From a phage: DNA of 64,000 nucleotides. The stretch lies in the sequence record PZ027503.1, one strand, 5' to 3'. Below the pieces are notes generated by a model that worked only from the letters and a program-made list of their open reading frames with translations, did not search any database and was not told where the DNA came from. The position numbers were made by a program, and so were the translations under genes. Positions 2,632-62,926 of the stretch are shown piece by piece; within the stretch, counting starts at the first letter, position 1, and each line of letters opens with the position of its first letter.

Positions 2632-2643
2632 GTGACCTCCTTA

Positions 2644-2817: not shown

Positions 2818-2869
2818 GCCATATCTCCTTTTAAAAGGCTGCACCTATTGAAGATGCAGCTTTGATAGA

Positions 2870-2971: not shown

Positions 2972-2980
2972 TATTTCTCC

Positions 2981-3589: not shown

Positions 3590-3597
3590 ATAACCTC

Positions 3598-5672: not shown

Positions 5673-6085
5673 CTTTCCTCCAGAAGTTGTTCAACAGTTT
5701 GACGAGTATGATTGTCCCAGTAAACCTTAGTGAAGTCAAGAGTTCCTTGTTCGTTTCTCTTAGTTTCGAAGAAGTATCCGCCTTCTCTTTCTACTCTGTC
5801 TCTAATGTGCTCTATAAGGTGCTTTTTACAAGATGCTGATAAACAATAGTCATACTCCCCACGAAGCAATGCTATAGCTGCAAGTCTGTTATCACCAACT
5901 TGAGATATTGTCCAAGAAAGCATACTACCTTTTATACCTAAAGGTGTTTGTCGAATGGAATATCCACCATGCCGACTGATAGAAATTATGGCAAGTGGTT
6001 CTCCTGTTAGGGATCTTCCTAATGCACCTTCTGTTGGACTTCCTTCAATAACACGTTTGAAAAAAGCTTTGATCTTACCTAACAT
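5666..6085 (-). CDS. hypothetical protein (139 aa)
   Basis: ORF track. Confidence 0.55.
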   Translation of the reverse strand: MLGKIKAFFKRVIEGSPTEGALGRSLTGEPLAIISISRHGGYSIRQTPLGIKGSMLSWTISQVGDNRLAAIALLRGEYDYCLSASCKKHLIEHIRDRVEREGGYFFETKRNEQGTLDFTKVYWDNHTRQTVEQLLEERC

Positions 6086-6103
6086 AAGTCCCCCCTTAAA
6101 AAC

Positions 6104-6238
6104 TTACTTGTTTAAAGTATCTCTTACTTGTTCTGCTTGACGTTTAGTAATAAAAGTCCCAACCGAAACGTTAAATTCATTGACTACAGAGAACGATCCA
6201 TCACGATTCTCACGAATATTAAACAATTTCTTACTCAT
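6104..6238 (-). CDS. small protein (44 aa)
   Basis: hand-translated MSKKLFNIRENRDGSFSVVNEF...; GGAGG RBS. Confidence 0.4.
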   Translation of the reverse strand: MSKKLFNIRENRDGSFSVVNEFNVSVGTFITKRQAEQVRDTLNK

Positions 6239-6434
6239 TTCTACCTCCTTCGATGCTTTGTGCCGTACCATCCCAAGCCATTAGAATATTTGCCAATAGT
6301 TCACGAGGCTCTTTAAACCAAACTTCCATTTCATCAAGAATCTCGTCCGTGTCGTAAGTATAACCTGGAACACCAAGTTCGCATTTCTTAAGATAGCTTT
6401 CTAACCAGCGGTGATAATTCTTAACCCCATTCAT
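6231..6434 (-). CDS. hypothetical protein (67 aa)
   Basis: ORF track. Confidence 0.5.
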   Translation of the reverse strand: MNGVKNYHRWLESYLKKCELGVPGYTYDTDEILDEMEVWFKEPRELLANILMAWDGTAQSIEGGRNE

Positions 6435-8472: not shown

Positions 8473-9144
8473 CTATTTAATGTTAAGTCTGGCACACAAA
8501 CGAGAAACAGTTTTAGCATCCCATTTACCACCACGTGCTGTTGCTATTTTCTTACTGTTGAATTTTTCAGCAATAGTTTTGTAAGGTGTATTTAAATCTC
8601 TAAGGATCTCCAAACGTTCACGGAATGTCTCTGCAAAAGCATCTGCTTTAACAGAGTTGTATTCCATTTTTCCTTTTCTACGCGCAGCGGCAGTTTTAGG
8701 ATTAGCACTGCCTAATAAAACACCTTTGCTTTTTGCTACAGCAAGACCCTTTTTAATACGATCAGCAATACCTCTAACCTCTTGTTCAGCCAGAACAGAC
8801 AGAAGCTGTATAACCATTTTATCTGCATCTGGCATAATGGCTATCTTAACATCAATCATTTCTAGAAGAGTTGCTACGGAGGCGTTGTTACGACCCAAGC
8901 GGTCAACTTTAGCTACCAATAAAGTTGCTCCGGTAGCTTTACACATTTCAACCGCTTTAACCAGTTCCTTACGTTGCTTCCAATCGCCCTTACCCGAATA
9001 GTATTCAGAAAATTGACCAATAACTTCCGCATCAGGCACAGAGTCTAAGAAGTAACGGATATCGTTCTCTTGGCTCTCCATACCATATTGTGCCTCGCCT
9101 TTTTTCTGTTTAGAAAGACGACTGTAAACAACAAACTTTTTCAT
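8473..9144 (-). CDS. serine recombinase (resolvase/invertase family)
   Basis: VYSRLSKQ catalytic-Ser motif, VAKVDRLGRN motif, C-terminal HTH-like segment; AGGAG RBS; sigma70-like promoter upstream. Confidence 0.75.
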   Translation of the reverse strand: MKKFVVYSRLSKQKKGEAQYGMESQENDIRYFLDSVPDAEVIGQFSEYYSGKGDWKQRKELVKAVEMCKATGATLLVAKVDRLGRNNASVATLLEMIDVKIAIMPDADKMVIQLLSVLAEQEVRGIADRIKKGLAVAKSKGVLLGSANPKTAAARRKGKMEYNSVKADAFAETFRERLEILRDLNTPYKTIAEKFNSKKIATARGGKWDAKTVSRLCARLNIK

Positions 9145-9214
9145 AACCACTCCTAAACCATTGCTGTATTCTCACTTTACAAAATGAATAAACACTTGTC
9201 AAGGTATTTATTAT

Positions 9215-9427
9215 TTACAGCCATTCTACTCTTAAGCAGTATTCCTCGACATGTTGTTTACGCTTGTTTTTGTCTATGTAAGTGTATTCAACAAATGTCC
9301 CAAGATAGTCCTTGTCTACATTGTGTGGGCTATTGATTGGACATTTAGTACGACAAACCCGTTGCCACTGACGAAGAATTACGGCTTTGTTTTTAGGATC
9401 AAACGGATGAGGGTAATATACCTTCAT
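9215..9427 (-). CDS. hypothetical protein (70 aa)
   Basis: ORF track. Confidence 0.5.
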   Translation of the reverse strand: MKVYYPHPFDPKNKAVILRQWQRVCRTKCPINSPHNVDKDYLGTFVEYTYIDKNKRKQHVEEYCLRVEWL

Positions 9428-9751
9428 TCACGCCCCCTGTTTTAGTCGAAAAATATTTTGAATAACTAGAGATGTATAGTTATCACCTAGTCCCATAAGT
9501 TCTACTTCCAAGTTTCGAATATCTTCCACCGTAGGAGGATATGTTGGTAAAAATGCTTGAGCATTGCCAGATCCAACCTCATTGCTGTAAGCAGTTGTAA
9601 AATTGTAAGATACAAAACATGAAACACCTTTTTGTCGGTACCCGATTAATCGACGAATACACCAGATAAGAGCCAAACCTATGAGAACACCTCCTAAACC
9701 AGCTAACAAGAAGGATAAGTTCATAATAGCTTCGTTAACAACTGCTTGCAT
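9428..9751 (-). CDS. membrane protein (107 aa)
   Basis: ORF track; N-terminal TM helix. Confidence 0.5.
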   Translation of the reverse strand: MQAVVNEAIMNLSFLLAGLGGVLIGLALIWCIRRLIGYRQKGVSCFVSYNFTTAYSNEVGSGNAQAFLPTYPPTVEDIRNLEVELMGLGDNYTSLVIQNIFRLKQGA

Positions 9752-9761
9752 TCTTTTCTCC

Positions 9762-10061
9762 TTAGTTATGTAAACCCAAATGTGCTACAACTTCTCTACG
9801 ATAAGATAACTGCATAGCGATTTTATAGCCAGGATGAAAACCATTTACATCAATGTCATCAAACCAAACCTCAAACGAACCGTGCTTAAGAGTCATTAAG
9901 TTGATATACCATTCGATAGTATAATGATCGTCAGCAATACCTTCGATGTAAAACTCTCGGCAACAATGAGATAAATCTTCACTTGTTTCACGTTTCCAGT
10001 CTTTGATAGCACCCTTCTCTTTAGCTTTATTCAGAATGTGGATCAGGTCTTCAACTTGCAT
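9762..10061 (-). CDS. hypothetical protein (99 aa)
   Basis: ORF track. Confidence 0.55.
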   Translation of the reverse strand: MQVEDLIHILNKAKEKGAIKDWKRETSEDLSHCCREFYIEGIADDHYTIEWYINLMTLKHGSFEVWFDDIDVNGFHPGYKIAMQLSYRREVVAHLGLHN

Positions 10062-10113
10062 ATTCTCTCCTTTGTGGTTAATCTTTATATTTTAAATATT
10101 GTACCGTCTTCTG

Positions 10114-10527
10114 TCAAATAGTCTCTTTCTCTAAAACAACTCTTTGGATCACAACATCTTCAATGTTTGCCAAACAATGACCCAAAGTCAATCCCGCCTT
10201 GAAAGGTGCTTGTAGTTTGGATTCGGCTTCTACGCGAACAGAATGTTCCGCTCCGCACATGGTGTAATCTACACGGTAAACGTTTAAACCTAAGAACATA
10301 GATTCTTCTTCCTCACAACAAGGATGAAGTTCAGCCCAGTCCCAAGCATCTCCTTCTAAAGCAAATGGAGTATTGTAATTGAAGAAAGTGCAGCGCGGAT
10401 ATTCCCCGTTGAAAGAATCTTTCAGCAGAATATATTTCTTACCGTTTGCATGGAAGAGTTCTCCTTTGATAACTTTACCTACAAGGATATCACTGTTAGT
10501 GGAACGGGTGCAAATAAACTTTTTCAT
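10114..10527 (-). CDS. hypothetical protein (137 aa)
   Basis: ORF track. Confidence 0.55.
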   Translation of the reverse strand: MKKFICTRSTNSDILVGKVIKGELFHANGKKYILLKDSFNGEYPRCTFFNYNTPFALEGDAWDWAELHPCCEEEESMFLGLNVYRVDYTMCGAEHSVRVEAESKLQAPFKAGLTLGHCLANIEDVVIQRVVLEKETI

Positions 10528-10581
10528 GATTTTCTCCTCTCTGTTTCGATGAGATGATTATGACAAAGACAGATCCTTCTG

Positions 10582-10908: not shown

Positions 10909-11111
10909 TCTCCTTCGTGATAGTAAACCTCAAAAGAATAGTAAGTGAACATGCTCATTGTAACACCTGCCATTTCTGGATCAAAGGGGGTGTTGTTATA
11001 CATGTCAACTACTGCCTGACCCGCTGCTTTGGCATGTGCTGCTGAATCACAGGCACAAACATCTTTCTCCCACGGAAACTTGCCATCATACTTAAGACGG
11101 ACAATCCACAT
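10899..11111 (-). CDS. hypothetical protein (70 aa)
   Basis: ORF track. Confidence 0.5.
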   Translation of the reverse strand: MWIVRLKYDGKFPWEKDVCACDSAAHAKAAGQAVVDMYNNTPFDPEMAGVTMSMFTYYSFEVYYHEGEWK

Positions 11112-11113
11112 GC

Positions 11114-11341
11114 TTATTCCTCCATCTCAAACCATTCAGGGAACACTTTATGGAAGACACGGGTTGTTTCCAAAAGGAATTCCAATTCTTTTTCCAGATC
11201 TGCGTTCCAATCGTGCACTTTAACATTGATTGCCAATGCACTTGCACGGCGACTCAATTCTTGACAGATTGGATCACGCAGAACTATTGAGTCATAAAAC
11301 TGACAAACAGCCTCAAGTTCATACCAGTTATAATCCGACAT
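11114..11341 (-). CDS. hypothetical protein (75 aa)
   Basis: ORF track. Confidence 0.5.
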   Translation of the reverse strand: MSDYNWYELEAVCQFYDSIVLRDPICQELSRRASALAINVKVHDWNADLEKELEFLLETTRVFHKVFPEWFEMEE

Positions 11342-11667
11342 TATTCATCCTCCTCTGCAATACGATCTCTTACCCAATTAATCCTGTCCACGTTCAGGTG
11401 ACATACCTCTGCATCTGATTCTAAGACATATGCATCGTAGTTCTCATTGAAAGGGAGTTCTTGACTCAACCCTTTGTGGTAAAACTGTGAGTGCATTTCA
11501 TCTGACAAGGTTGTTATAAGAGGATTGTAGCCATCCGCGTGCACATAGTCGAATAAGTTGGCACACAAACCGCAATCCCGCCGAAAAGGTTTACCATCAG
11601 GAGCACCAACATCAATCCACGCTAGATAAATTTTATAAAACTCCATCAACCTTGCACTTGTTTTCAT
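11341..11667 (-). CDS. paralog family A member
   Basis: ORF track; FYKIYLAWI, GLC, VDRINWVRDRI motifs; GAGGTGG RBS. Confidence 0.6.
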   Translation of the reverse strand: MKTSARLMEFYKIYLAWIDVGAPDGKPFRRDCGLCANLFDYVHADGYNPLITTLSDEMHSQFYHKGLSQELPFNENYDAYVLESDAEVCHLNVDRINWVRDRIAEEDE

Positions 11668-11905
11668 TTAGCCACCTCGTTAGTTTTTCTTGCTCTTTGT
11701 TTGCGCGTTCTAAGCTTCTGAACTTTAAACAGAGGGAACGAGAATCCCTACCCATGCACAAGCTTTCATCTAAGCTGTGCTCCCCAACCAACCAAAGAGA
11801 GTATGTTTGAACATCTAACCCATAGTTTCTGTCTTTCCATAATCTCACCCCAAGAACATCAAAAGGCGCTTCCGCGACTAAAGAAAGAAACCGATCTTTA
11901 TTCAT
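11633..11905 (-). CDS. hypothetical protein (90 aa)
   Basis: ORF track; 35-nt overlap with downstream gene. Confidence 0.45.
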   Translation of the reverse strand: MNKDRFLSLVAEAPFDVLGVRLWKDRNYGLDVQTYSLWLVGEHSLDESLCMGRDSRSLCLKFRSLERANKEQEKLTRWLNENKCKVDGVL

Positions 11906-11967
11906 ATTACACCACCTTGCTCACGTTGATAATGTATGTATACCATACATAAAATAAATGTCAAGGC

Positions 11968-12168
11968 TTATCGACACAGATAGTTGTAACGATCTGCTTT
12001 ATCCTCTGCTTCAGCAAAGTCAGCAATCAAGGAAGTTTTGAGTTCTTCCAACTCTTTCACCCAAGAGTCGTAATCGTTCTGTGTTTCTCCAATAGTTTGG
12101 AGAAAACAATCGTCGTAGCCAATAGACATGGCTAACTCGATAATACGTTCCAGTTTTTCTTCCATCAT
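11968..12168 (-). CDS. hypothetical protein (66 aa)
   Basis: ORF track. Confidence 0.5.
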   Translation of the reverse strand: MMEEKLERIIELAMSIGYDDCFLQTIGETQNDYDSWVKELEELKTSLIADFAEAEDKADRYNYLCR

Positions 12169-12527
12169 TTCTCTCCTTCTACAGGCTTCTGTTTAACATA
12201 AAAGTAAGCACCACGAGCAAGATACAAATCATGTTCAATATCGCTCACAGGAAAACCATCTGGATTTTTAAAACCATCTTCTACAGCCAAAATGAGAGAT
12301 CGTAAACTGATAGCTAACAACTCCATTTGATCTTGTAGTTTTCTATTTTCTGCGTAAAGGTTTTTGCATTTTTGTTCTGCATTTTTCCATTGTTCTAATG
12401 CATGATCATAGCGGTGCATAAGAATAGCTTTTTCTTGTTCACGCTTAAAAGTTTCTTCGCAAATGAAACCTGTGCCTAAACCAGTTTCTTCGTCTTTGAC
12501 AAACACTTCAACAAAATCTTTAGACAT
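12165..12527 (-). CDS. hypothetical coiled-coil protein (120 aa)
   Basis: ORF track frame; start at internal ATG with AGGAGA RBS. Confidence 0.55.
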   Translation of the reverse strand: MSKDFVEVFVKDEETGLGTGFICEETFKREQEKAILMHRYDHALEQWKNAEQKCKNLYAENRKLQDQMELLAISLRSLILAVEDGFKNPDGFPVSDIEHDLYLARGAYFYVKQKPVEGEK

Positions 12528-12528
12528 A

Positions 12529-12819
12529 TTATCTCCTATTTGCTTTAGGATACTCCCAACCCTCTGGGAGATCTTCTTTACACATCCACTCAAAAGGCCA
12601 GCGACAATAACTGTGCCATTTTCCATTGAGATACAAACAATCTTCATCTACTGGTCCACAAGGGTTGATAACTACAACACACCCTTTCGCTCGCCAATAT
12701 TGAACTATTTCAGGGTAAAAACAAGAAACGTCGGTCCACTCCCAAATACGTTCATCATTCAGACGGTAGGCTGCTGGTAATGTTTCTTTCATAGTATTAA
12801 ACCTGAGCCAAGGAGTCAC
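12529..12819 (-). CDS. hypothetical protein (96 aa)
   Basis: ORF track. Confidence 0.55.
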   Translation of the reverse strand: MTPWLRFNTMKETLPAAYRLNDERIWEWTDVSCFYPEIVQYWRAKGCVVVINPCGPVDEDCLYLNGKWHSYCRWPFEWMCKEDLPEGWEYPKANRR

Positions 12820-47495: not shown

Positions 47496-47747
47496 ATGGC
47501 AGGGTATCACATAACAGACATTAAGAAACAACCTTATGGCAGCATAGAAAAGATTAAAGAGGAAGTAGAAGAACTTTTTGATGCTGTTGAACAGGATTGC
47601 AAAATAATGCAACTTGTTGAATTATCAGATATTATAGGTGCTGTTGAGGGAGTTTTAGAACAACAGTTCCCAGATATGACTTTACAAGACTTAATCATTA
47701 TGTCCAACATTACTAAACGCGCTTTCCGCACAGGAGGAAGATCATGA
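47496..47747 (+). CDS. MazG-like nucleotide pyrophosphohydrolase domain protein
   Basis: EEVEELFDAV ... ELSDIIGAV pattern. Confidence 0.45.
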   Translation: MAGYHITDIKKQPYGSIEKIKEEVEELFDAVEQDCKIMQLVELSDIIGAVEGVLEQQFPDMTLQDLIIMSNITKRAFRTGGRS

Positions 47748-48298
47748 ACGTAGCTGTTATTGCTCAAGCTATTGATTACTACGGGCGATTTGCGGAGATG
47801 TTGGAAGTCCCTTATCTTGTAGATGCGGATATCCTTGCATATACATTACCAGAAGGTAAAGAGGATCGCCCCTTGGGGCATCCTAATGGTAAGTTCTACG
47901 TAGCCAGTGCAGAGCAGTCTTTCCTCCAGATGGAGAAAGATGGGTTTGAATTTTCAACAGATCATCCTTATATGGCTCTAACACCTTGCTACCGAACAGA
48001 AGAAGAGTTGGATGATGCTCATTTTAACATTTTCTTAAAGTTGGAAATTATTGAGTTTTATCCAGGAGCGTCCGTCAAAGAATATGCCGAAACTATGCGC
48101 TATTTCTTTTGGACGTATTACAAAGTTCAAACTCAAATCATAGAGACAGATATTGGTCTTGACGTGGAAGATATGTATGGGTTAGAATTAGGTTCGTTTG
48201 GGATGAGAACTTCTCCACAAGGTCATCCATATTTATACGCCACTGGTATCGCAGAGCCTAGGGCATCTATTGCAATAAAACGAGGAGGGTTATTATGA
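47744..48298 (+). CDS. hypothetical protein (184 aa)
   Basis: ORF track. Confidence 0.55.
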   Translation: MNVAVIAQAIDYYGRFAEMLEVPYLVDADILAYTLPEGKEDRPLGHPNGKFYVASAEQSFLQMEKDGFEFSTDHPYMALTPCYRTEEELDDAHFNIFLKLEIIEFYPGASVKEYAETMRYFFWTYYKVQTQIIETDIGLDVEDMYGLELGSFGMRTSPQGHPYLYATGIAEPRASIAIKRGGLL

Positions 48299-49641
48299 AT
48301 GTATATGCACATAAGCAAGATTTGGTAACAGCGGCAAACAATCGGGGCTTGTTCGATAGGCTTTGCAAAGCTATTGAGATTGCATATGGTTGGACTAAAG
48401 AGACAGATCCTAAACTTACAGGACAATATGCTCTTTTACACGGTTGCACAAATTTTCCATACATCTGTCACACAGTCGGGACCGATGAATTTACTGGAGA
48501 GCCGACAGTAGGAGATAATGAACTACGTTTTACAGGAGATGCAATGCTAGATTTAATTTTTAAGAAAACTAAAATGCTAAAAATTGAAGATGTTTACACA
48601 GACACTAGTAACCTTTCTGAAGAAGAAATTGGAGAAATGATTACTACTTTCAATAATACAACAGGGAAGAGTTTTTGGACTAAAAGCGATGCTTCCCGTC
48701 TTAAACGAGTAGACCCTGCTATTCCAGAAGACGGTAAGAAGTATCGAAAAGTTATCTTTTACGATAAAATGGCAGGTCTGGATGCTCTACATCTTGAGTG
48801 TGGAAGCCTTGTGCCTCCGGCTGTTAGAGAACATGAATTTGCAGTTGAGGTTGAAGCACAGGAGTTTAAAGATATGTTTTATACTAAGCATGTAAGAAAA
48901 GTGGAAGATGTGGAACAACAAAAAGAGACTTTTGAACCAGAAGACACAGAGCCTACCTATATTCCTAATACAGGTATTCAACCTTGTGAGGACTTTGTTC
49001 AAGTCCGTTACAAAAATGGTGTTTTAGAAGTATGCAAAGCCAACCACTTCGAATGGGAGAAATACGACAGTGAATGGCAGATTGAAGAATATTTTGTTCT
49101 CCCAAGAACAGCAAAATACCAAGCCCACATCGGAGGTAGACGCCCTTGTGATGGTCCTGTTAATGTCCTTTTTCGAAATGGGGACAAAGGAAAAGGTTTG
49201 GCAGAGACGTTTTATTGGAGCCACTCTGGAGATGGGTCAGATATTGTAGGTTATATTCAACTTAACCCGTCTCCACGTTACCGCAAGCGTCGTCAGAAGC
49301 CGCCAGTAGGTAAGAAGAGTGTCGTTCGTGTCCTTTACACTACACAGCAGACATACACATTTAAAAATGTGGTAGACGTGCAAGTGACCGAGGAGCGAGT
49401 TTATATCCAATATGATCGTGAAGTTACAGAGGGTATTAAAGAATCGGTTACTACCGAAATTGAAAATAAGCTTGTTATGGCAATCATTGTGGAAGAAAGT
49501 AAAGTAGAGAACGGTAAAGCCTACATTGTTCGTGATAGCTTCTTGCGTAACATTGATGGAACTTGGGATTATAATGGACACGATGGGACCGCTGTAAAGA
49601 ACGGTAAGATCATGGGAAGACAATTCCTCTCCAAACGATAA
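48295..49641 (+). CDS. hypothetical protein (448 aa)
   Basis: ORF track; no recognised motif. Confidence 0.6.
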   Translation: MNVYAHKQDLVTAANNRGLFDRLCKAIEIAYGWTKETDPKLTGQYALLHGCTNFPYICHTVGTDEFTGEPTVGDNELRFTGDAMLDLIFKKTKMLKIEDVYTDTSNLSEEEIGEMITTFNNTTGKSFWTKSDASRLKRVDPAIPEDGKKYRKVIFYDKMAGLDALHLECGSLVPPAVREHEFAVEVEAQEFKDMFYTKHVRKVEDVEQQKETFEPEDTEPTYIPNTGIQPCEDFVQVRYKNGVLEVCKANHFEWEKYDSEWQIEEYFVLPRTAKYQAHIGGRRPCDGPVNVLFRNGDKGKGLAETFYWSHSGDGSDIVGYIQLNPSPRYRKRRQKPPVGKKSVVRVLYTTQQTYTFKNVVDVQVTEERVYIQYDREVTEGIKESVTTEIENKLVMAIIVEESKVENGKAYIVRDSFLRNIDGTWDYNGHDGTAVKNGKIMGRQFLSKR

Positions 49642-49647
49642 AACTTA

Positions 49648-49675
49648 AAGGCGCACTTTGCGCCTTTTTTGATTT
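49648..49675 (+). terminator. rho-independent terminator
   Basis: AAGGCGCACTTTGCGCCTT hairpin then TTTTTGATTTT. Confidence 0.6.
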
Positions 49676-49741: not shown

Positions 49742-51556
49742 ATGAAAGATTTGTACCAAGATGTTTTTTCTTTTTTAGATCGCACTTCAGAAACATACAC
49801 TAGAGAGAATGCAAACAAACCTTCCCACCTCGTTAACACGCACAGGGATCTCTTGGCGGGGATTTTAAGCAAACATATGGCAATGACACAGATACTGCCA
49901 AAAAACTTGTCAGAATGGCATACAGAAGGTTTTGGACATATTCACGACTTGGATTATCTACTCTCTCCTCTTACAAACTGTTGTCTTGTTAATTATCAAG
50001 ATATGTTAGAGAATGGTTTTAAGATCGGAGCCGCACAGATAGAAAAACCAAAATCTATTGGGGTAGCTACTACAGTGCTAACTCAAATCATTCAAGCTGT
50101 TGCCTCCAGTCAGTATGGAGGTCAAACGTGTGCGCACATTGATAAAGGTCTTAGTCCTTATGTTGAAGCTAGTTTCCTTAAAAACATGGAGATAACCAAA
50201 CGTCGCTACGGTTGTTATGCAAGGAAAGAAGCCCTGGAAATGACCGAACAAGATGTATATGATGCTATGCAAACTCTCTTGTATCAGGTTAATACTTTAA
50301 TGAGTGTTAATGGACAATCTCCTTTTATTACAATCAGTATGGGTCTGGATACCTCTGTTTTTGGCAGAATGATCACAGCTAACTATCTTAAAGTGCATAG
50401 TAACGGTCTAGGCAAAGATCATGTAACACCTGTATTCCCTAAAGTTATTTTCTTTTTACAAGAAGGTGTTAACATGAAACCTAATGATCCTAACTATGAC
50501 CTTAAGCAACAAGCTTTGGCATGTTGTGCTGATCGTATTTATCCAGACTTTATTTCTGTTCCTTTGAACAAAGAAGTTACGGGATCAGCAGATGGTACTG
50601 TTACGAGTATGGGTTGTCGTTCCTTTTTGTCGTACTATGCCACCGAGCAAGGAGAAAAATATGATGGACGATTCAACCTTGGAGTAGTTTCTATCAACTT
50701 GCCTCTGATTGCTGCGGAAGCGAGAAGTAAAGGAGAATCTTTCACCGATCTTCTTAATAAACATATGGAGATAGCCTACGATGCTCACATGCTACGTGTA
50801 AACCGTATCAGACATACCAAAGCATCTGAAAACCCTATTCTTTTCATGGAAGGGGCTTTAGCGCGTTTAAATGCCAACGATGAAATTGGTGTTTTGTTTG
50901 AAGGTGGTTATGCTTCTATTAGTATTGGTTATGTAGGTCTTGCCGAAGCTTTGGAAATCCTTTATCCAGAAGAAAAAGATAAAAAGGAACTTGGTAAAAA
51001 CATTCTGCAACATATGAAAGATGTGTGTGCTGTGTTTAAAGAACGATCTAATTTGGCGTTTAGTCTCTATGGAACTCCAGCAGAATCTTTGTGCTATAAG
51101 TTTGCAACAGCTTTAAATGAAAAATACCCAGGTTTGGTAGAAAGAGACTATCTTACCAACTCTTTTCACCAACCTGTATGGTTGGTAACAAATCCTTTTG
51201 AAAAATGGGATTATGAAGCAGGTTTTGCACAGATTAGCAATGGTGGTAACATAAGTTATGTCGAAACACCAAACTTAAAGAATAACTTAGAAGCTTTGGA
51301 GACTTTAGTAGACTACGCTTATGAACATATTCACTATTTTGGTATTAATCAGCCCGTGGATCAATGCTTTAAGTGTGGTTTTCATGGAGAATTTAAGGCA
51401 ACGGCTAAAGGGTTTGAGTGTCCTGATTGTGGCAATCATGAAGAAGAAACTATTTCTGTAGTTAGACGTGTATCAGGGTATCTTTCTGCCCCTAATTCAC
51501 GGCCTTACAACAAAGGTAAAATGCAGGAAGTTTTGCAAAGGGAGAAACATCTTTGA
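49742..51556 (+). CDS. nrdD: anaerobic ribonucleoside-triphosphate reductase (class III RNR)
   Basis: 604 aa; C-terminal Zn ribbon CFKCG...CPDCG and glycyl-radical motif RRVSGYL. Confidence 0.85.
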   Translation: MKDLYQDVFSFLDRTSETYTRENANKPSHLVNTHRDLLAGILSKHMAMTQILPKNLSEWHTEGFGHIHDLDYLLSPLTNCCLVNYQDMLENGFKIGAAQIEKPKSIGVATTVLTQIIQAVASSQYGGQTCAHIDKGLSPYVEASFLKNMEITKRRYGCYARKEALEMTEQDVYDAMQTLLYQVNTLMSVNGQSPFITISMGLDTSVFGRMITANYLKVHSNGLGKDHVTPVFPKVIFFLQEGVNMKPNDPNYDLKQQALACCADRIYPDFISVPLNKEVTGSADGTVTSMGCRSFLSYYATEQGEKYDGRFNLGVVSINLPLIAAEARSKGESFTDLLNKHMEIAYDAHMLRVNRIRHTKASENPILFMEGALARLNANDEIGVLFEGGYASISIGYVGLAEALEILYPEEKDKKELGKNILQHMKDVCAVFKERSNLAFSLYGTPAESLCYKFATALNEKYPGLVERDYLTNSFHQPVWLVTNPFEKWDYEAGFAQISNGGNISYVETPNLKNNLEALETLVDYAYEHIHYFGINQPVDQCFKCGFHGEFKATAKGFECPDCGNHEEETISVVRRVSGYLSAPNSRPYNKGKMQEVLQREKHL

Positions 51557-52023
51557 ATTTTGCAGGATATGAACCTGTAGATCTTATTAATGGTGAGGGA
51601 GTTAGGTGCTCCCTCTGGGTTAGTGGTTGTAGCCACGGTTGTCGTGGCTGTTTTAACCAAAAAGCCTGGTCTTATTCTTATGGGAAACCGTTTACTCACG
51701 AAAATGTAGAGCAAGTTTTAAAAGATTTGTCAAGACCGTTTGTAAAAGGTTTAACAATTTTAGGAGGAGAGCCATTAGATCCGCAGAATATTTACAATGT
51801 TAAAAACCTTATAGAAAAGGTGAGAGACGTTTATGGGTCAAGCAAAGATATAATGGTGTATACAGGATATACTTTTGAGGAAGTGCCTTTGTATATTAAA
51901 AATCTTGTTGACATTATTGTAGACGGAAAGTATGAAATAAACAATCCAACTACAAAACCTTTCAGAGGGTCAGATAATCAAAGATTATGGACCAAAACGG
52001 CAAGTGGTTGGCAGTCAGATTAA
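51553..52023 (+). CDS. nrdG: anaerobic RNR activating radical-SAM enzyme
   Basis: CSHGCRGC (Cx3Cx2C) motif; ATGA-coupled to nrdD. Confidence 0.85.
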   Translation: MNFAGYEPVDLINGEGVRCSLWVSGCSHGCRGCFNQKAWSYSYGKPFTHENVEQVLKDLSRPFVKGLTILGGEPLDPQNIYNVKNLIEKVRDVYGSSKDIMVYTGYTFEEVPLYIKNLVDIIVDGKYEINNPTTKPFRGSDNQRLWTKTASGWQSD

Positions 52024-52243: not shown

Positions 52244-52849
52244 ATGCAACATAGTGTAGTAGTCAACATGCCGAATAGTGGGGATAAATCTTTTGGTGCC
52301 CCTGCTAAAAAAGTGTGGAAAGCCCATTTTCATCTTACTTTATCTAACGTTAGTTCTGAAGAGTTGATGAAAGCAGCTAAGATTATTGGTGCCAAATGCA
52401 CAACAATTGATTTACATCGGGATACAAAGTCTCAACGTGATCGTATGTTAACAAAGTATCAAAGCGATCTCGACACTACTTTAATGTTGCAGTGTGTAGA
52501 AAAACTTGAGAAGGCAGGTTTCAATGTTGTTCGTTACAAACTGGAACGAATGTTTAAACATGTTGCCTGTGTTCTTTTCATGGATCTAAGCAAAGAAAAT
52601 TATGGAGAAGTTCACATTAAGACTTCAGCAAGTGATCCCGAAGTAGAAACAAACTTCTTCCGTATTTCTTCTAATGCTGAAGAAATTGATTACCGATTTT
52701 ATAATGCTCGCTTATATTCCGCAGAAGATAAGTTGCGTTTCAATGAAGCGTATGAGATGCTCTTGAACAGTGGGATACAGATAAAAGGCTACCACATAGA
52801 ACAAGTGGTAGTGGACAGTAATCTTAATTTAGACGCATGGTGGGCTTAA
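52244..52849 (+). CDS. hypothetical protein (201 aa)
   Basis: ORF track. Confidence 0.55.
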   Translation: MQHSVVVNMPNSGDKSFGAPAKKVWKAHFHLTLSNVSSEELMKAAKIIGAKCTTIDLHRDTKSQRDRMLTKYQSDLDTTLMLQCVEKLEKAGFNVVRYKLERMFKHVACVLFMDLSKENYGEVHIKTSASDPEVETNFFRISSNAEEIDYRFYNARLYSAEDKLRFNEAYEMLLNSGIQIKGYHIEQVVVDSNLNLDAWWA

Positions 52850-52850: not shown

Positions 52851-53507
52851 ATGACTATTAAACATATCTCTTTTGATGTATGGAACACACTGATCACAGC
52901 AAACTCCAATTACGCAGATATGCGAGCCTGGACTATCGCAAAATATGGAGATATTACGGAAGTGGAAGCAAGAGCAGCTTATAAGAAGATCAAAAAGGAA
53001 CTGGATAATGCAGCACTTCAAGGCAAAGCTGAGTGTGCAGCATACGCCTGGGAAAGACTTGGTTCTGAACTTGGGATAACCCCTTGGAAGTCTGCAAAGC
53101 TTCGTTTCGAGTGTGAACAGTGGTTCCTTAAGTTTCCACCACACGTAGCCGTGGATCTGCCGATGTACTTGCTGTATCTTTCGGGGCGTTATGATTTGAG
53201 TATTAAGAGCAATACCAACTTCATATCAGGGGATATCCTGCGTCGTGCTTGTAAGTTTGATAGTTGGAATTGTTTTGAGTTCACCCATTTCTCGGATGAA
53301 GCTTTACTTTGTAAACCAGATCCGCGATTCTTTGCTCGCACGCTCACGTATTCTCCGATCCCTCTGTTAGGGCACGAAGTATTGCACGTAGGCGATAGTG
53401 AAGAATATGATGGAAAATGTGTTGACTTAGGATTTAACTTCTGTCATATTAAGAACCCTAACGACTTACTAGAGAAACTTAAAAGAGGAGAAATTGTAAA
53501 TGCGTAA
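52851..53507 (+). CDS. HAD-superfamily hydrolase
   Basis: motif I FDVWNTLI, motif III CKPDPRFF, motif IV HVGDSEEYD. Confidence 0.65.
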   Translation: MTIKHISFDVWNTLITANSNYADMRAWTIAKYGDITEVEARAAYKKIKKELDNAALQGKAECAAYAWERLGSELGITPWKSAKLRFECEQWFLKFPPHVAVDLPMYLLYLSGRYDLSIKSNTNFISGDILRRACKFDSWNCFEFTHFSDEALLCKPDPRFFARTLTYSPIPLLGHEVLHVGDSEEYDGKCVDLGFNFCHIKNPNDLLEKLKRGEIVNA

Positions 53508-54327
53508 TCAAACTCAAATTTTTGCAAATAAATTTGATGACCTGGAAACTGCTACTTTTGATATTAAAGATTATTCAAAATTGAAATTTGGTAGTAACCA
53601 GGCTGCGCGTCGTATGGGTAAAGAATTGGCACTTCAGTTTTTTGCTCAAGTGGCAATGGAACATATTGGGGAACAATTTGTTATCATCCCTTCTCCTTAC
53701 AACCATGTGCATAATGCTGCAACAATGATGACAGATCATTTTATTAATTACTTTAATATGTTGCAATCACAATATGATCAAGGTCGTTCAGCAGAACTGG
53801 ATATTATTCATCGTAAAGTTAGCTATATCAACGATTATGGTTTCTTGGATAAAGCTAGTCGTAAGAAACTTATTGATGGGGATACATTCTACTGCAACAA
53901 AGAATTCTGGGGTGATAAGAAGCTTGTGTTTATTGATGATGTAAATATCACTGGAACTCATGAAGACAAACTGATTGAGATCCTTGATGAAAATCAAGTT
54001 AAAAATGATGTTTACTTCTTGTATTTTGCAAAATATGAAGGTAATCAAGCAGATACCGAAGCTAAACTGAATTTTAACTACATTAAGACACCAGAAGCGT
54101 TTGTTAAAATGATTAATGAAGAACGTGATGCACAGTGCCTTGTTCGTCCTATTAAGTATCTTATGGGCCAAAATCACGAAGACTTCAAAATCATTCTTAG
54201 CCAATTGCCACACTACTATGTAGAGCAACTTTTCTTCGGATGCTTGGGAGAAGGTTACAACCGAATTTCAAAGTATGCTGAAAACTTTGAATTCTTGGAT
54301 CGTTACACAAAACAACACATTCTGTAA
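53500..54327 (+). CDS. phosphoribosyltransferase (type I PRTase fold) family protein
   Basis: PRPP-binding loop LVFIDDVNITGTH. Confidence 0.65.
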   Translation: MRNQTQIFANKFDDLETATFDIKDYSKLKFGSNQAARRMGKELALQFFAQVAMEHIGEQFVIIPSPYNHVHNAATMMTDHFINYFNMLQSQYDQGRSAELDIIHRKVSYINDYGFLDKASRKKLIDGDTFYCNKEFWGDKKLVFIDDVNITGTHEDKLIEILDENQVKNDVYFLYFAKYEGNQADTEAKLNFNYIKTPEAFVKMINEERDAQCLVRPIKYLMGQNHEDFKIILSQLPHYYVEQLFFGCLGEGYNRISKYAENFEFLDRYTKQHIL

Positions 54328-54339
54328 TAAGGAGCTAAA

Positions 54340-54813
54340 ATGCTTAAAATGAAAACAGGTAATCTTATTGATGCCGCTAAAGCAGGTGAAGTAACTGTTA
54401 TTGCTCATTGTTGCAACTGTATGTGTAATATGGGGGCAGGTATTGCCCCACAAATCAAACAAGCATTTCCTTACGCATATGCAGCAGACTTAGACACAAT
54501 GGCTGGTGATCAAAGTAAACTAGGTTGTTTTAGTTTAGGGGTGCCAGACGAACAATCAGACCCTTTGGTATATAATCTATACGGGCAATACCGTTACGGA
54601 TACAATGCTAAAGGTCGTCAGTTGGACTATGATGCACTTTACGATGCACTAATAGCTATGGCTAATGATTTGCTTCTCCGTGACCAAAAATGTAAGATCG
54701 GCTTACCTATGATTGGCGCTGGATATGCTGGAGGTAATTGGGCTATCATCCAAGTGATGATTGAAGAAACTTTAGTAAAAACAGGTCACGATGTGACTAT
54801 TTATAAACTTTAA
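54340..54813 (+). CDS. macro-domain protein (ADP-ribose binding/processing)
   Basis: VIAHCCNCMCNMGAGIA and KIGLPMIGAGYAGG motifs. Confidence 0.7.
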   Translation: MLKMKTGNLIDAAKAGEVTVIAHCCNCMCNMGAGIAPQIKQAFPYAYAADLDTMAGDQSKLGCFSLGVPDEQSDPLVYNLYGQYRYGYNAKGRQLDYDALYDALIAMANDLLLRDQKCKIGLPMIGAGYAGGNWAIIQVMIEETLVKTGHDVTIYKL

Positions 54814-54825: not shown

Positions 54826-55047
54826 ATGGGTGTTTTTGCAGGTATTGTTGCAGTGGTAAGCTTTTTTGTTATTGCTTTTATGCTTAGTTTGATTCCAGCT
54901 TGGTTACTGTTGCTGGCTTACAACTATGTTGCTGAAGTTATGGGTCATGCAGATATCACTGTCCCAGTAACCTTCTGGACCGTGGTTTGTGTTTCGTTTA
55001 TTCTGGCTGTATTACGAGGAATCTTTTCCTCTCATTCAACAAAATAA
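54826..55047 (+). CDS. small membrane protein (73 aa)
   Basis: ORF track; two TM helices. Confidence 0.5.
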   Translation: MGVFAGIVAVVSFFVIAFMLSLIPAWLLLLAYNYVAEVMGHADITVPVTFWTVVCVSFILAVLRGIFSSHSTK

Positions 55048-55126: not shown

Positions 55127-56101
55127 ATGCAACTTGGTTTCCCAATTATTGATGTAGTTGTTTTAGTTGGTATTTTAGCATTGTCTATTGGTATCGATTT
55201 CTTTGGTCATAAAGAGAATAAAGAAATTGGAATTAAATCTGCTTTGCTTTGGTCTGTTTTTTGGATTGCTTTAGCTTTAGGATATTACGCATTCATTTGG
55301 GTAGAACATGGTAAAGAGTTTGCCGCGCTTTTCCTAAGTGGCTATGTGTTGGAAAAGAGTCTTTCTGTAGATAACCTGATGGTGTTCATGGCGATTTTTG
55401 CAAGCTTTGGAATTAAGAGCACACATCTCCAACATAAGATTCTACTTTGGGGGATTGCAGGAGCCATTGTCTTCCGAGGTATTTTTGTTGCAGCAGGGAC
55501 CGCTTTGTTTAACCTTCATTGGTCGGTCCAAGTGTTGTTCGGTTTGATTGTAGCTTGGTCTGCCGTGGCTATCATCAAAGGTGGTGACGAAGAAGAGGAT
55601 ATTGATTACTCTAAACATTGGGCTGTTCGTTTAGTAGGTAAAGTTCTGCCTGTGCACAATGCACTAGATGGTGAAAAGTTCATTACCATTAAGAATGGTA
55701 TTAAATATGCAACTCCTGCTCTTCTTTGTGTGTTTGTTATTGAGCTTACAGATATTGTCTTCTCTTTTGATTCAGTTCCGGCTGTGATCGGTGTGACACA
55801 AGAACCTCTGCTAGTTTATTCTGCAATGCTGATGGCTGTTCTTGGTTTACGTGCACTTTTCTTTGTGTTAAGTGTAGCTGTGAAATATCTGGTTCACTTA
55901 GAGAAAGCTGTTGCTGTGGTTCTGGTGTTTGTCGGTGCTAAACTTATGTATCACCCGTTCGGTGAAACACTTCATGCCAAGTGGTCATTCCTCCCGCATG
56001 ATATTTCCCCTAACGTAAGTCTGATGATTGTTCTAGGCACATTAGCTCTTGGTGTTATTGCAAGCTTTATCTTCCCTGAAAAAGAAGAAGCTGCTATTTA
56101 A
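55127..56101 (+). CDS. TerC-family integral membrane protein
   Basis: multi-TM; duplicated signature VLEKSLSVDNLMVF and IELTDIVFSFDSVPAV. Confidence 0.8.
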   Translation: MQLGFPIIDVVVLVGILALSIGIDFFGHKENKEIGIKSALLWSVFWIALALGYYAFIWVEHGKEFAALFLSGYVLEKSLSVDNLMVFMAIFASFGIKSTHLQHKILLWGIAGAIVFRGIFVAAGTALFNLHWSVQVLFGLIVAWSAVAIIKGGDEEEDIDYSKHWAVRLVGKVLPVHNALDGEKFITIKNGIKYATPALLCVFVIELTDIVFSFDSVPAVIGVTQEPLLVYSAMLMAVLGLRALFFVLSVAVKYLVHLEKAVAVVLVFVGAKLMYHPFGETLHAKWSFLPHDISPNVSLMIVLGTLALGVIASFIFPEKEEAAI

Positions 56102-56107: not shown

Positions 56108-56130
56108 AGCCTCCTTCGGGAGGCTATTTT
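56108..56130 (+). terminator. rho-independent terminator
   Basis: AGCCTCCTTCGGGAGGCT hairpin then ATTTTAT. Confidence 0.6.
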
Positions 56131-57725: not shown

Positions 57726-58316
57726 ATGCATACCGAGAGAGACTTGCAACTCTTGTGGTGGGAAGTGATGCAGGAAATAAAAGAAGATTTTCCTGTTTAC
57801 TACAACATGTTACGTGAAGCAGGATATAAAGCTTGTGTTAGAAACAAAGTGAATAACTCTTTCGGTTGGTGCAACTACCGAGATAAAATTGTTGTTGTAA
57901 ATTGGCACTTGCATAAGAACTCTACAAGAGATATGATCGTGGATACAATGAAGCACGAAATTGCTCACGCTATTGATGGTTGTATGGGTAAGTTTAGTAG
58001 GCACGGTGCTCATTGGCAAAAACTGGCAGCAGAGTTAGGGGCTAATCCTAAAGCCACTTCCAAAGAGCCGTTGAACCACGAGTATAAATATGTTCTTGTT
58101 CTGGTAGATAGGTTTGCGACAAGATGTGTTAGAGGTTATAATCGTAAACCTAATCGCATGTACCCAGGCAAGCAACCTAACATGTGGTTGAAATCAGATA
58201 AAGAAGGAACTGAAGGAAAATTATGGTTGTATAAATGGGATGATTGGGTTAAAGTAGCTAAAGAGTACGGTGTTTCACCATATATAAGAGATGCAGAAGA
58301 GGAGAATGAAGAATGA
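57726..58316 (+). CDS. SprT-like zinc metalloprotease domain protein
   Basis: HEIAHAIDG ... HGAHW motifs. Confidence 0.6.
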   Translation: MHTERDLQLLWWEVMQEIKEDFPVYYNMLREAGYKACVRNKVNNSFGWCNYRDKIVVVNWHLHKNSTRDMIVDTMKHEIAHAIDGCMGKFSRHGAHWQKLAAELGANPKATSKEPLNHEYKYVLVLVDRFATRCVRGYNRKPNRMYPGKQPNMWLKSDKEGTEGKLWLYKWDDWVKVAKEYGVSPYIRDAEEENEE

Positions 58317-59425
58317 CAAGTCCATTTTTAAAAGTAGCTACTGGTGGTCAGAAGAAGTCTGAAATGAGTGTATTCGCTGCAACAACAGATGCAAGTAAAT
58401 CTGTATTCGCTCCAAGCGTGTTAGATGCCAGTCCTGTTTATGCACCAGCGGCACCGCAAGAAGTTCCAGTTTTGCCTTCTATGACCCGACAAGAGATTGA
58501 AGAGATTGGGGCAGAGGCAGGAACAACCTTGCGTTCCTTGAATGCCGAGGTGTTAAAACATCAACGTAGTAATCAAGGCGATCAGATGAGTGAACGACTT
58601 ACAGCTTTGATTAAACAGGCAAAACAACTTGATCCAAACTCTATTAAACAAAGCAAGGGTATTACTAAACTCATTAAAAAAGTTATGGGTATGAAAGAAG
58701 ACCTGTTCGGGGAGTTTGATAATGTTAATAACCGTATTGAAGAGTTGGTAAAGAACCTTCAAATGGATATTCGCAAAGAAGAAGATTCCTTGGTATATCT
58801 TGAAAAGCTACATCAAGCTATTGGACAATATGCTGCAAGTTTGAACCGAGATATGCAGCTTCTAACAGCAACCTATGAAAAAGAAGAACAAGCTTTGGCT
58901 GCTCTTCCAGAAGATGCAGTAGAACAGCGACAAGTGATCCGAGATACTTTGGATCTTCTGGAGATTCGTATTGCAGATTTAAAAGCATTGCGCCTACTGT
59001 GTGTCCAAATGGGACCGCGTGTACAAGGTATGCAAAAAGTTTCTGCAAGCTTAATGCGATCTGCGCGTAACATAGTAAATAATGTTATTCCTGCTTACTC
59101 TGCTAACTTCTCAATGTATATCGAGAGCTTACGTCAAATGAAAGCAGCAGAGACGCAGAATAACGTTCTTGATGAATTTAACCTGGCAATTAAACTGGGT
59201 AGCGATCTTGCCACACAGAATCAGATCGAAGCAGCAGCACTGGCTAACCGTCAAGTGTTGGATATTGAAACTCTGCGTCACGATCAGGAAAACTTGGTTA
59301 AGATGCTGGAAGAAACTAACCGCATCAATACGGAAGCCCGTGCTGCTCGTGTTGATTATATTAATGAAGTTCAATCTCTGGAAGACGGGATGGTAGCTGC
59401 TGTGAAACGAGGGCTTGGTAAATGA
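58313..59425 (+). CDS. alpha-helical/coiled-coil protein (370 aa), possibly TelA-like
   Basis: ORF track; TelA suggestion from size and Ter context only. Confidence 0.5.
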   Translation: MTSPFLKVATGGQKKSEMSVFAATTDASKSVFAPSVLDASPVYAPAAPQEVPVLPSMTRQEIEEIGAEAGTTLRSLNAEVLKHQRSNQGDQMSERLTALIKQAKQLDPNSIKQSKGITKLIKKVMGMKEDLFGEFDNVNNRIEELVKNLQMDIRKEEDSLVYLEKLHQAIGQYAASLNRDMQLLTATYEKEEQALAALPEDAVEQRQVIRDTLDLLEIRIADLKALRLLCVQMGPRVQGMQKVSASLMRSARNIVNNVIPAYSANFSMYIESLRQMKAAETQNNVLDEFNLAIKLGSDLATQNQIEAAALANRQVLDIETLRHDQENLVKMLEETNRINTEARAARVDYINEVQSLEDGMVAAVKRGLGK

Positions 59426-61018: not shown

Positions 61019-61813
61019 ATGTCCGAGAAAATCAGCCTGAAAAAACGTCAAGAAAACCTTGCTTTCTCTCTGAAAAAGAATAAGAACCTGAATGAAGGTA
61101 AGATTGTTCTTCGTGTAGCATGTGCTCTAGATATTTCTGGTAGTATGCATGGTCTATATTCTAGTGGGGTAGTGAGTGATTTTGTAGGTAAACTGCTTCC
61201 TTTTGGTATGCTGTTCGACGATAATCAACAAATTGATATGTGGGCCTTCAATACGAGTTCCCAAGAGCTTACTCCAGCAACAGCAGACGTTTACGATGAC
61301 TATGTTGGTAAATGTATGCGCAATGTTCGTATCGGAGGTGGAACAAATTACGCCCCTGTAATGGCAGATATCTACGATGAGTATTTTGGCACTGTTACCA
61401 AATATATTACCACTAAACAAGTGGTACAAGAGGAGGCTCCAAAGAAAGGCTTCTTTAATCGTCTGCTTGGTAAAACTGAAACAGTGTCTGTAGAGCGTGA
61501 AAAAGTTGTAGCTGTATCTGAACCAGGTGCTGACGTTACCCCTGGTGTTGTATTCTTCCAGACGGATGGTGAGAATGGTGATCCTAGTGCTGTTCGTCGT
61601 CTTATTGAAGAGAATAAGAATAAACCTATTTATTGGTTCATGGTTGGCGTTGGTAATGAGAAGTTTGGCTTCCTGAAAGAACTGGCAAATGCTTATGATA
61701 ATGTTGGTTTTATTGGCATTAAAGATTTAGACTTGACAGATTCAGAGCTTTATGACAAACTTTTATCTGAAGAGTTCGGAGAGTGGGTTGTTAAAGTAGG
61801 TGCTAAAAAATGA
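61019..61813 (+). CDS. vWA-domain protein with KISLKK N-terminus
   Basis: MIDAS-like DISGSM motif. Confidence 0.65.
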   Translation: MSEKISLKKRQENLAFSLKKNKNLNEGKIVLRVACALDISGSMHGLYSSGVVSDFVGKLLPFGMLFDDNQQIDMWAFNTSSQELTPATADVYDDYVGKCMRNVRIGGGTNYAPVMADIYDEYFGTVTKYITTKQVVQEEAPKKGFFNRLLGKTETVSVEREKVVAVSEPGADVTPGVVFFQTDGENGDPSAVRRLIEENKNKPIYWFMVGVGNEKFGFLKELANAYDNVGFIGIKDLDLTDSELYDKLLSEEFGEWVVKVGAKK

Positions 61814-62323: not shown

Positions 62324-62926
62324 ATGACTGATAAAATTTCCCTGAAAAAAGGCTCTAGCGAAAAAATTTCCCTGAAGAAAGTTGCTCCGGCTCTGAAAGA
62401 ACTGCGCCTGGAATTCTCTTGGAAATCTGATTCTAAACTGGATCTGGATGTAAGTGCACTGGTTTGTCGTCATAATGCCGCTGGCAATCCTGAAATGCTG
62501 TCTGCACGTCATCTGGTTTGCTACGCTAACAAGTTTGATCCTGAACGTTCTACCTTCGCTGGTGACGATGTTCGTGATGGGACTGGCAGCATGGAGCAGA
62601 TTGATATTACTCTGGCTAAAATTTCTCCTGATGCACAAGAGATTGCCTTTGTTCTGACCATTGATGATGATACAGGTCTGAAACGTTTTGGTCATGCTTC
62701 TGAAGGTATGCTTAAAATCTTTGACTCCGAACGCAATGTGGAAATTCTGGATTTTGACTTCCTGGCTCCTGAAGTAGCTGGTAACACAATCTGCCACGTG
62801 GCTTCCTTGGTTCGTGAAGATGGGGAATGGAAGCTGAAAGCATATGGTGTAGGTAAAGCTGGTCTGGATATTTGCGATGTGGTGATGGCCTTCGGTGGTA
62901 AAAAAGAATGGTATGAATGTCCATAA
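62324..62926 (+). CDS. TerD-family protein
   Basis: 200 aa; duplicated KISLKK N-terminus, LDLDVSALV, EIAFVLTID, C-terminal GEWKLKAYGVG. Confidence 0.7.
   Translation: MTDKISLKKGSSEKISLKKVAPALKELRLEFSWKSDSKLDLDVSALVCRHNAAGNPEMLSARHLVCYANKFDPERSTFAGDDVRDGTGSMEQIDITLAKISPDAQEIAFVLTIDDDTGLKRFGHASEGMLKIFDSERNVEILDFDFLAPEVAGNTICHVASLVREDGEWKLKAYGVGKAGLDICDVVMAFGGKKEWYECP

Follow-up and report, generated by a model that had tools for sequence, protein, structure and literature searches.

A conserved HAD hydrolase–PRTase_3 gene pair as a candidate small-molecule arm of a phage-borne Ter system

The DNA considered here is a stretch of 64,000 nucleotides from the phage sequence record PZ027503.1 (the window, whose numbering is used throughout unless another locus is named), and its subject is a run of three + strand genes that encode a HAD-superfamily hydrolase of the DxWxT subfamily (52851–53507; 218 amino acids), a ComF-like type I phosphoribosyltransferase (PRTase) of the Pfam family PRTase_3 (53500–54327; 275 amino acids), and a macro domain protein (54340–54813; 157 amino acids). 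Based on profile searches, structure comparisons, and gene neighborhoods, the HAD and PRTase_3 genes are the conserved unit of the three, and the reading to which we give a little better than an even chance is that this pair forms the small-molecule arm of a phage-borne Ter system, from which the macro domain protein stands apart. The source phage is a Phapecoctavirus, a phAPEC8-like E. coli myovirus. The products of the HAD, PRTase, and macro genes match PHROG families with E values of 3e-117, 5e-161, and 1e-53, respectively; 4.2 kb of the region is 99% identical in DNA sequence to Escherichia phage ETEC-TG, and about 70 other phAPEC8-like phages (Phapecoctavirus, Stephanstirmvirinae) match it at 94–99% DNA identity. 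Because of these strong PHROG matches and the conservation in about 70 genomes, the three open reading frames (ORFs) are genes rather than chance ORFs. In the preliminary description of this region, they had been described as tightly packed and located between nrdDG and TerC, in agreement with the ORF coordinates: the HAD and PRTase ORFs overlap by 8 nt, 12 nt separate the PRTase and macro ORFs, nrdD and nrdG lie upstream, and the TerC gene lies downstream.

Conservation of the HAD–PRTase_3 pair

Loci of the pair (given by L numbers where they must be told apart) were sampled from phi92, Xanthomonas phage XaC1, Rhizobium phage TM61, Brevundimonas phage Kikimora, IMG/VR and other metagenomic contigs, and bacterial metagenome-assembled genomes (MAGs). 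A homologous HAD gene is located immediately upstream of the PRTase gene in 30 of the 30 fetched loci, phage and bacterial, in which a HAD is recognizable; no HAD was detected in L010, where just 670 nt of upstream sequence is present. Where both ORFs were called, the two genes overlap in 18 loci, most of the others are spaced by 40 nt or less, and three are spaced by 172–192 nt. Searches begun from the HAD side gave the same pairing result. The pairing spans Stephanstirmvirinae, Xanthomonas phage XaC1, Rhizobium Kleczkowskaviridae, Brevundimonas Dolichocephalovirinae, many metagenomic phages, and two bacterial MAGs. The PRTase was found by tblastn in 157 of 50,697 phage records, and the pattern scan of bacterial genomes, in which strict patterns were used, returned 4 loci only, so the bacterial distribution of PRTase_3 is under-sampled. 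Proteins in which HAD, PRTase, or macro domains are fused to one another were searched for, and none was found. Thus, of the three-gene unit that had been expected to recur in related phages, the HAD–PRTase_3 pair recurs as such, and the macro gene adjoins it in Stephanstirmvirinae only.

The PRTase matches the Pfam family PRTase_3 (PF15610, "PRTase ComF-like") over essentially its full length (profile positions 9–264 of 264) with an E value of 9.9e-42 and a score of 143.6 bits against a cut-off of 28.7. It has the type I PRTase fold, not a NadV-like one, with an intact loop for binding of phosphoribosyl pyrophosphate (PRPP), in which two acidic residues are followed by TG; this loop, VFIDDVNITGT, had already been pointed out from the translation. 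Among homologues, the loop residues D146, D147, T151, G152, and T153 are invariant, and about 50 further positions are invariant or nearly so. Placement by profile search, which the preliminary description had called for, assigns the enzyme to the Ter-associated clade PF15610, whose definition came from Ter operons, and to no salvage family: a search of NCBIfam down to E ≤ 1 gave no family match, and therefore no curated salvage model claims the protein. In the AlphaFold model built from 45 homologues (pLDDT, the predicted local confidence score, 92.9), residues 186–275 are predicted to form an extra conserved C-terminal helical domain that has no counterpart in salvage enzymes, and structure comparison identified ComF as the closest structural relative. 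The flexible loop of the enzyme resembles the Ser-Tyr loop of HGPRT. Where HGPRT has its catalytic Asp, an invariant Ile is found, and because of this replacement the acceptor of the PRTase is not assignable from its sequence.

On the HAD side, the single sequence scores 21.2 bits against the Pfam family Hydrolase, under the cut-off of 26.4, and because of this HAD membership is taken from the family profile rather than from the single sequence. A profile of 8 HAD family members matches 40 solved HAD structures, with 2om6 at the top (E 3e-18), followed by HDHD3, PH0459, and L-2-haloacid dehalogenases as the nearest structures in the Protein Data Bank (PDB). Motif I reads FDVWNT, with the nucleophile D9 followed by W11 and T13, and motifs II (S120), III (K155-PDP), and IV (G181-D182-SEEY-D187) are intact; D9, W11, T13, S120, K155, G181, D182, and D187 are invariant. 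The HAD fold, the DxxxT motif, and the KPDP motif of the preliminary description were thus borne out, and the motif written there as GDSxxD should read GDSxxxD. HAD phosphatases carry their general acid/base Asp two positions after the nucleophile. At this position, 100 of 101 homologues possess Trp and 1 possesses Tyr, so that motif I departs from the phosphatase form DxDx[TV], with Trp where the general-acid Asp would be expected; the archaeal protein 2om6, which is uncharacterized, has the same FDVWNT motif. Accordingly, the earlier label "HAD phosphatase" is sound as to the HAD superfamily and motifs II–IV and doubtful as to the phosphatase activity. A distant DxWxT-type HAD (DFWQT) also occurs in a bacterial cluster without PRTase_3 (L036; 6411–8536 and 13270–14262), where its neighbors are a second HAD, a LigT-type 2H phosphoesterase, a CYTH protein, and an ATP-grasp protein that also matches ATPgrasp_Ter.

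Linkage to Ter genes

The Ter core, in which TerC, TerD, TelA, and a vWA protein of the TerF/TerY type are encoded together, is present in the window. It consists of genes for a TerC-family integral membrane protein (55127–56101; Pfam TerC, E 3e-40), TelA of the toxic anion resistance protein family (58313–59425; Pfam TelA, E 3.2e-33), a vWA-TerF-like protein (61019–61813; Pfam PF10138, E 1.6e-37), and a TerD-domain protein (62324–62926; Pfam TerD, E 3.2e-28), all of which lie on the same + strand as the pair and within 9 kb. The linkage of the pair to Ter genes is established by neighborhood and by phyletic pattern. Ter genes adjoin the pair in six other phage lineages: the order is TerC-x-TerD-x-vWA-TerF-HAD-PRTase in the phage contigs L006 and L007 and TelA-vWA-TerF-...-TerC-HAD-PRTase-TerD in the phage contigs L012 and L013, and Ter genes also stand beside the pair in L026 and L028. 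Furthermore, in one bacterial cluster, on a contig of the gammaproteobacterium Haliea, the pair ends a canonical Ter cluster with the order TerC-TerD-TerY(vWA) x3-PP2C-...-TerD-HAD-PRTase_3, and the PRTase encoded there is 38% identical to the phage enzyme. TerD was found in 146 phage records whose breakdown by organism is nearly that of the PRTase, and TerD and PRTase_3 each occur in about 0.3% of the 50,697 phage records. The resemblance to bacterial Ter-linked modules that had been suggested for these genes is therefore upheld by the invariable HAD pairing and by the Ter link in several unrelated phage lineages and a bacterial cluster, and the TelA, vWA-TerF-like, and TerD genes of the window make this link stronger than the TerC gene noted at first. 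In Brevundimonas phage Kikimora, the pair has no Ter neighbor, and TerD lies 33 kb away. Pfam searches with the conserved proteins of 390–430 and 310–390 amino acids that are encoded in the metagenomic Ter loci returned nothing informative.

The macro gene

The assignment of the third gene to the macro domains, also made in the preliminary description, holds: its product scores 22.4 bits against Pfam Macro (cut-off 22) and matches the solved macrodomains SCO6735 (5e3b; E 3.5e-12), BT1257 (2fg1; E 1e-8), and TARG1 (E 3e-6), and in alignment with solved macrodomains the ADP-ribose-binding loops (AHCCN...GAGIA and PMIGAGYAGG) are kept. At the positions of the TARG1 catalytic dyad, which we take to be Lys84 and Asp125 in the numbering of that protein, the phage protein has Q and A, as do SCO6735 and BT1257. 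From its sequence, the protein is predicted to be an ADP-ribose hydrolase of the SCO6735/TARG1 type. Identity with DarG was considered and rejected: the protein scores 35.2 bits against NCBIfam NF048014, for which 250 is needed, matches the N-terminal macro part only, and, at 157 amino acids, has no DarT-binding domain.

The distribution of the macro family differs from that of the pair. Macro homologues, including T4 Tk.4, occur in 2,920 phage records, about 20 times more than the 157 records with the PRTase, and 41% of myoviruses carry a macro domain according to a published survey (PMC9503650). The macro gene directly follows the pair solely in Stephanstirmvirinae, where Phapecoctavirus and Justusliebigvirus retain this order; even there, 0.6–1 kb of other DNA lies between the PRTase and macro genes in L017 and L018. 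In about 20 lineages outside Stephanstirmvirinae, the macro gene adjoins the pair in none, and L013/L025 alone has one, about 7 kb away. On account of this limited adjacency, the inserted DNA, and the far wider distribution of the family, the macro gene falls outside the conserved unit, and most likely it represents a separate ADP-ribose-removing function placed beside the pair in Stephanstirmvirinae.

Proposed function and alternative explanations

As to the substrates, the product, the reaction of the HAD enzyme, and the biological role, we infer the following scheme. The HAD and PRTase_3 proteins could constitute a translationally coupled two-enzyme unit, in which the PRTase would transfer the phosphoribosyl group of PRPP to a nucleophile that is probably a heterocycle resembling a base. 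The HAD enzyme would then act on the PRTase product. It is usually assumed to take off the 5'-phosphate and so leave a nucleoside-like compound; since the HAD enzyme lacks the general-acid Asp, this nucleotide-to-nucleoside phosphatase step is an assumption and not a reading of the sequence. The resulting molecule may work on or through a membrane-associated complex of TerD, TerC, TelA, and the vWA protein in the infected cell, and could be used for the exclusion of other phages or for stabilizing the envelope and ion balance. Separately, the macro domain protein, which is of a kind very common among large phages, may counter ADP-ribosylation by host defenses or handle the products of a Sir2-family protein that the phage encodes at 827–1642 (+ strand; Pfam E 1.9e-22), about 52 kb from the macro gene.

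Several observations weigh against this assignment to a Ter system. The correlation of TerD and PRTase at the genome level is dominated by one subfamily, Stephanstirmvirinae, and at the sensitivity used, the Rhizobium phages and XaC1 are absent among the TerD matches. About half of the independent lineages lack a Ter gene within 10 kb of the pair, and the neighbors in these lineages are an RNA ligase, a DUF2828/DUF7788 protein, a metallophosphatase, or NAD-salvage genes. The Trp in place of the general-acid Asp argues against a simple nucleotide 5'-phosphatase. The literature searches for biochemistry of PF15610 members found none, and what Ter proteins would do in a lytic phage is a matter of conjecture. 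A more specific and more speculative form of the proposal, which we consider unlikely as a whole, avoids the phosphatase step: the DxWxT HAD and PRTase_3 would make a ribosylated small molecule by a route other than simple dephosphorylation, this molecule would be a ligand that switches the phage TerD/TerC/TelA/vWA complex and is used to exclude competitors or to resist host-induced membrane collapse, and, in Phapecoctavirus, the macro protein and a protein of 201 amino acids encoded upstream of the HAD gene would tailor or recycle the compound.

Among explanations that set the Ter genes aside, the pair could belong to the toolkit with which large phages repair RNA and handle NAD and ADP-ribose; its substrate would be an RNA end or a ribose-phosphate by-product, and the Ter adjacency would be secondary. 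This would fit the position of the pair in XaC1, L014, and L015, where genes for an RNA ligase and a DUF2828/DUF7788 protein flank it, the genes for RNA ligase, metallophosphatase, AAA_33 kinase, and NADAR near the pair in other loci, the NAD-salvage genes near it in L004, L007, and L034, and the nature of ComF, the closest structural relative, as a nucleic-acid-associated protein of PRTase fold. However, these neighbors vary by lineage and are often found in auxiliary regions of large phage genomes, the present phage encodes its RNA ligase and phosphoesterase elsewhere (OR786310, 61–62.5 kb), and the bacterial homologue resides in a canonical Ter cluster without RNA-repair genes, so that we regard this explanation as distinctly unlikely. 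Somewhat less probable again is a single three-step pathway, in which HAD, PRTase, and macro proteins would together make or process an ADP-ribose-related nucleoside tied to Sir2-derived O-acetyl-ADP-ribose. The three genes adjoin one another within one apparent transcription unit, their order is conserved in Phapecoctavirus and Justusliebigvirus, the phage does encode a Sir2 protein, and in Vibrio phages a homologous macro gene adjoins a Prs-like gene; on the other hand, such a pathway is at odds with the missing adjacency in the roughly 20 other lineages, the DNA inserted in L017 and L018, the much greater abundance of the macro family, the remoteness of the Sir2 gene, and the lack of domain fusions among the proteins searched.

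In a counter-defense role independent of Ter, the two enzymes would either produce a nucleoside analogue to block a sensor or effector of host immunity or use up PRPP or a base needed by a defense system. Such a role could account for the restriction of the pair to large lytic phages, where it stands among early or middle auxiliary genes, and for the anti-defense genes near some loci (Acb3 in L013; NADAR). We rate it as improbable, since no link to a known defense system was found and bacterial chromosomal homologues occur in Ter clusters and beside unrelated genes. Ordinary nucleotide salvage, with an orotate or purine PRTase and a HAD nucleotidase feeding the deoxynucleoside triphosphate supply together with nrdDG, is very improbable in our estimate. 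It is suggested by some GenBank records that annotate a "putative orotate phosphoribosyltransferase", by the adjoining nrdDG genes in the window, and by ribonucleotide reductase or dCTP deaminase/dUTPase genes near the pair in L007 and L012, but the NCBIfam salvage families give no match, Pfam assigns PRTase_3 only, the extra C-terminal helical domain is conserved, and coupling a salvage PRTase to a nucleotidase would set up a futile cycle. The assignment of the HAD–PRTase_3 pair to a Ter system thus remains the preferred reading.

Organization of the locus and other neighborhoods

Upstream of the HAD gene, the + strand carries nrdD (49742–51556), one intact ORF of 604 amino acids, nrdG (51553–52023), an ORF of 74 amino acids, and the gene for the 201-amino-acid protein (52244–52849; phrog_22504), which stops 1 nt before the HAD gene. 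The family of this last protein is narrow, with 34 members, and has the invariant motifs HxHxT and ExHxK. Its predicted model consists of tandem ferredoxin-like repeats, and a structure search with this model gave no convincing match; identity with a 2H phosphoesterase was rejected, as the protein does not display a LigT-like fold with two HxT/S motifs. The gene accompanies the pair in Phapecoctavirus and some of its relatives, being present upstream of HAD in L001, L008, and L017–L019 and absent in phi92, and the protein may be a lineage-specific accessory of the HAD–PRTase_3 module. Between the macro gene and TerC lies a gene for a protein of 73 amino acids (54826–55047, + strand; phrog_16065), which is nearly all hydrophobic and whose position is conserved across Stephanstirmvirinae. 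Terminator-like GC-rich hairpins with T runs at 49647–49667 and 56108–56125 flank the segment from nrdD through TerC, and the former is able to form on both strands; it is plausible that this hairpin-bracketed segment is one transcription unit. Farther downstream, a gene of the SprT-like metallopeptidase family (57726–58316, + strand) shares 4 nt with the start of TelA; the SprT-like/TelA order is also found in L018 and L019, and the SprT-like gene was not detected in phi92.

In phi92 (L002, 1218–3296), nrdD is annotated in two pieces joined as a "spliced variant", and the nrdD of the window is intact. Farther upstream on the + strand of the window, two overlapping ORFs, 47744–48298 (184 amino acids) and 48295–49641 (448 amino acids), are annotated in relatives as "histidyl tRNA synthetase" and "ribonucleotide reductase", respectively; their products have no Pfam match at E ≤ 0.01, and the annotated names look unsupported. 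The records MG065650, MG065645, OP562383, and OR584014 are named as phages of Campylobacter, Acinetobacter, and Pseudomonas, and the regions searched closely match E. coli Stephanstirmvirinae; for MG065650 and OP562383, the DNA identity to the latter is 98–99%, and the host labels may be wrong.

In other lineages, the surroundings of the pair are diverse. In three unrelated large phages, XaC1 (L003, 3518–8527), L014 (2443–8825), and L015 (5171–10562), the pair is located between or beside the RNA ligase and DUF2828/DUF7788 genes, and genes for a CCA-adding enzyme, a Nudix protein, YqeY, and a hibernation factor follow further along these loci. Within a few kb of the pair, L034 encodes NAPRTase, a NadM-type NMNAT-Nudix protein, isochorismatase, and NAD synthase (1–5000 and 9001–10532), L004 encodes NadM (5857–6420), and L007 encodes a PnuC-like transporter and an AAA_28 kinase (11029–12612). 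Because NadM, PnuC, or NAPRTase genes are found near the pair in these three lineages, NAD+ reconstitution by the NARP1 or NARP2 pathway was considered for the present phage. It was rejected and enters only as one element of the toolkit explanation above: neither Adps with Namat nor a NadV-type NamPT with NMN adenylyltransferase is annotated in the inspected parts (1–100 kb and 114–147 kb) of the 99%-identical genome OR786310.

Significance and comparison with known systems

The function of the Ter genes has been obscure for decades, and in the literature searched, the predicted "nucleoside-like metabolite" was not found identified. The phages described here carry a minimal system of two enzymes together with TerC, TerD, TelA, and a vWA protein. 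E. coli K-12 is a host of several of these phages, which makes them a potentially tractable model in which to look for the metabolite and what it acts on. With Trp conserved where the HAD general acid would be, there is concrete cause not to take for granted the textbook chemistry of a PRTase followed by a phosphatase.

A Ter "biosynthetic module" was reportedly predicted by Anantharaman, Iyer and Aravind in 2012. According to passages of PMC11994780 that summarize Anantharaman et al. 2012, this module comprises two or five enzymes and always includes a PRTase and a HAD protein, and its product is guessed there to be a pyrimidine-derived ribonucleoside. The two-enzyme bacterial form is matched here in the PF15610 family of the PRTase, in the obligatory HAD partner, and in the linkage to TerC, TerD, TelA, and vWA genes; unlike it, the present pair is carried by a lytic phage. 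In contrast, the five-enzyme form, as outlined in the same passages, possesses an ATP-grasp protein, a TIM-barrel lyase, and a second PRTase, without which the phage version is minimal. Both the two-enzyme PRTase and HAD module of Ter systems (as summarized in PMC11994780) and its presence in phages (PMC7824862, section 3.4.10) are already in the literature, so that the novelty of the preliminary description was overstated. Ter systems with PRTase and HAD were described for Acinetobacter phage vB_AbaM_ME3 and Caulobacter jumbo phages in the section of Iyer et al. (2021, Viruses 13:63, PMC7824862) on such systems, where Ter components are also noted in some smaller tailed phages and superinfection exclusion is proposed. 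These systems resemble the present one in that Ter components are phage-encoded together with a "signal biosynthesis" PRTase and HAD, and they differ in genome size, the present phage having a genome of 150 kb and not being a jumbo phage. In the portions of PMC7824862 reached by term searches, the Stephanstirmvirinae order (nrdDG, HAD, PRTase, macro, transmembrane protein, TerC, TelA, vWA-TerF, TerD) and the DxWxT HAD did not turn up.

More distant comparisons concern the individual proteins. ComFC/ComF of H. pylori (PDB 7p0h) is 9% identical to the phage PRTase; ComF functions in DNA uptake and carries a zinc finger at its N-terminus, and the phage enzyme instead has the C-terminal helical domain and a HAD partner. 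In toyocamycin biosynthesis, ToyH and ToyI convert a base and PRPP to a nucleotide and then, by a phosphatase, to a nucleoside, which is the same logic as that proposed for the phage pair, and the sequence relationship is at the superfamily level only. No base-biosynthesis genes were identified beside the phage pair. SCO6735, BT1257, and TARG1/OARD1 belong by sequence to the same clade as the phage macro protein (E 3.5e-12 to 3e-6), and the T4-like Tk.4 genes are homologous; because the TARG1 Lys/Asp pair is replaced by Q and A, the phage protein is grouped on mechanism with SCO6735 and BT1257. Taken together, the HAD–PRTase_3 pair is a well-supported instance of a published computational prediction, to which the present analysis adds a fuller Ter set, the strict coupling of HAD and PRTase, a HAD enzyme without the general acid, and the independence of the macro gene.

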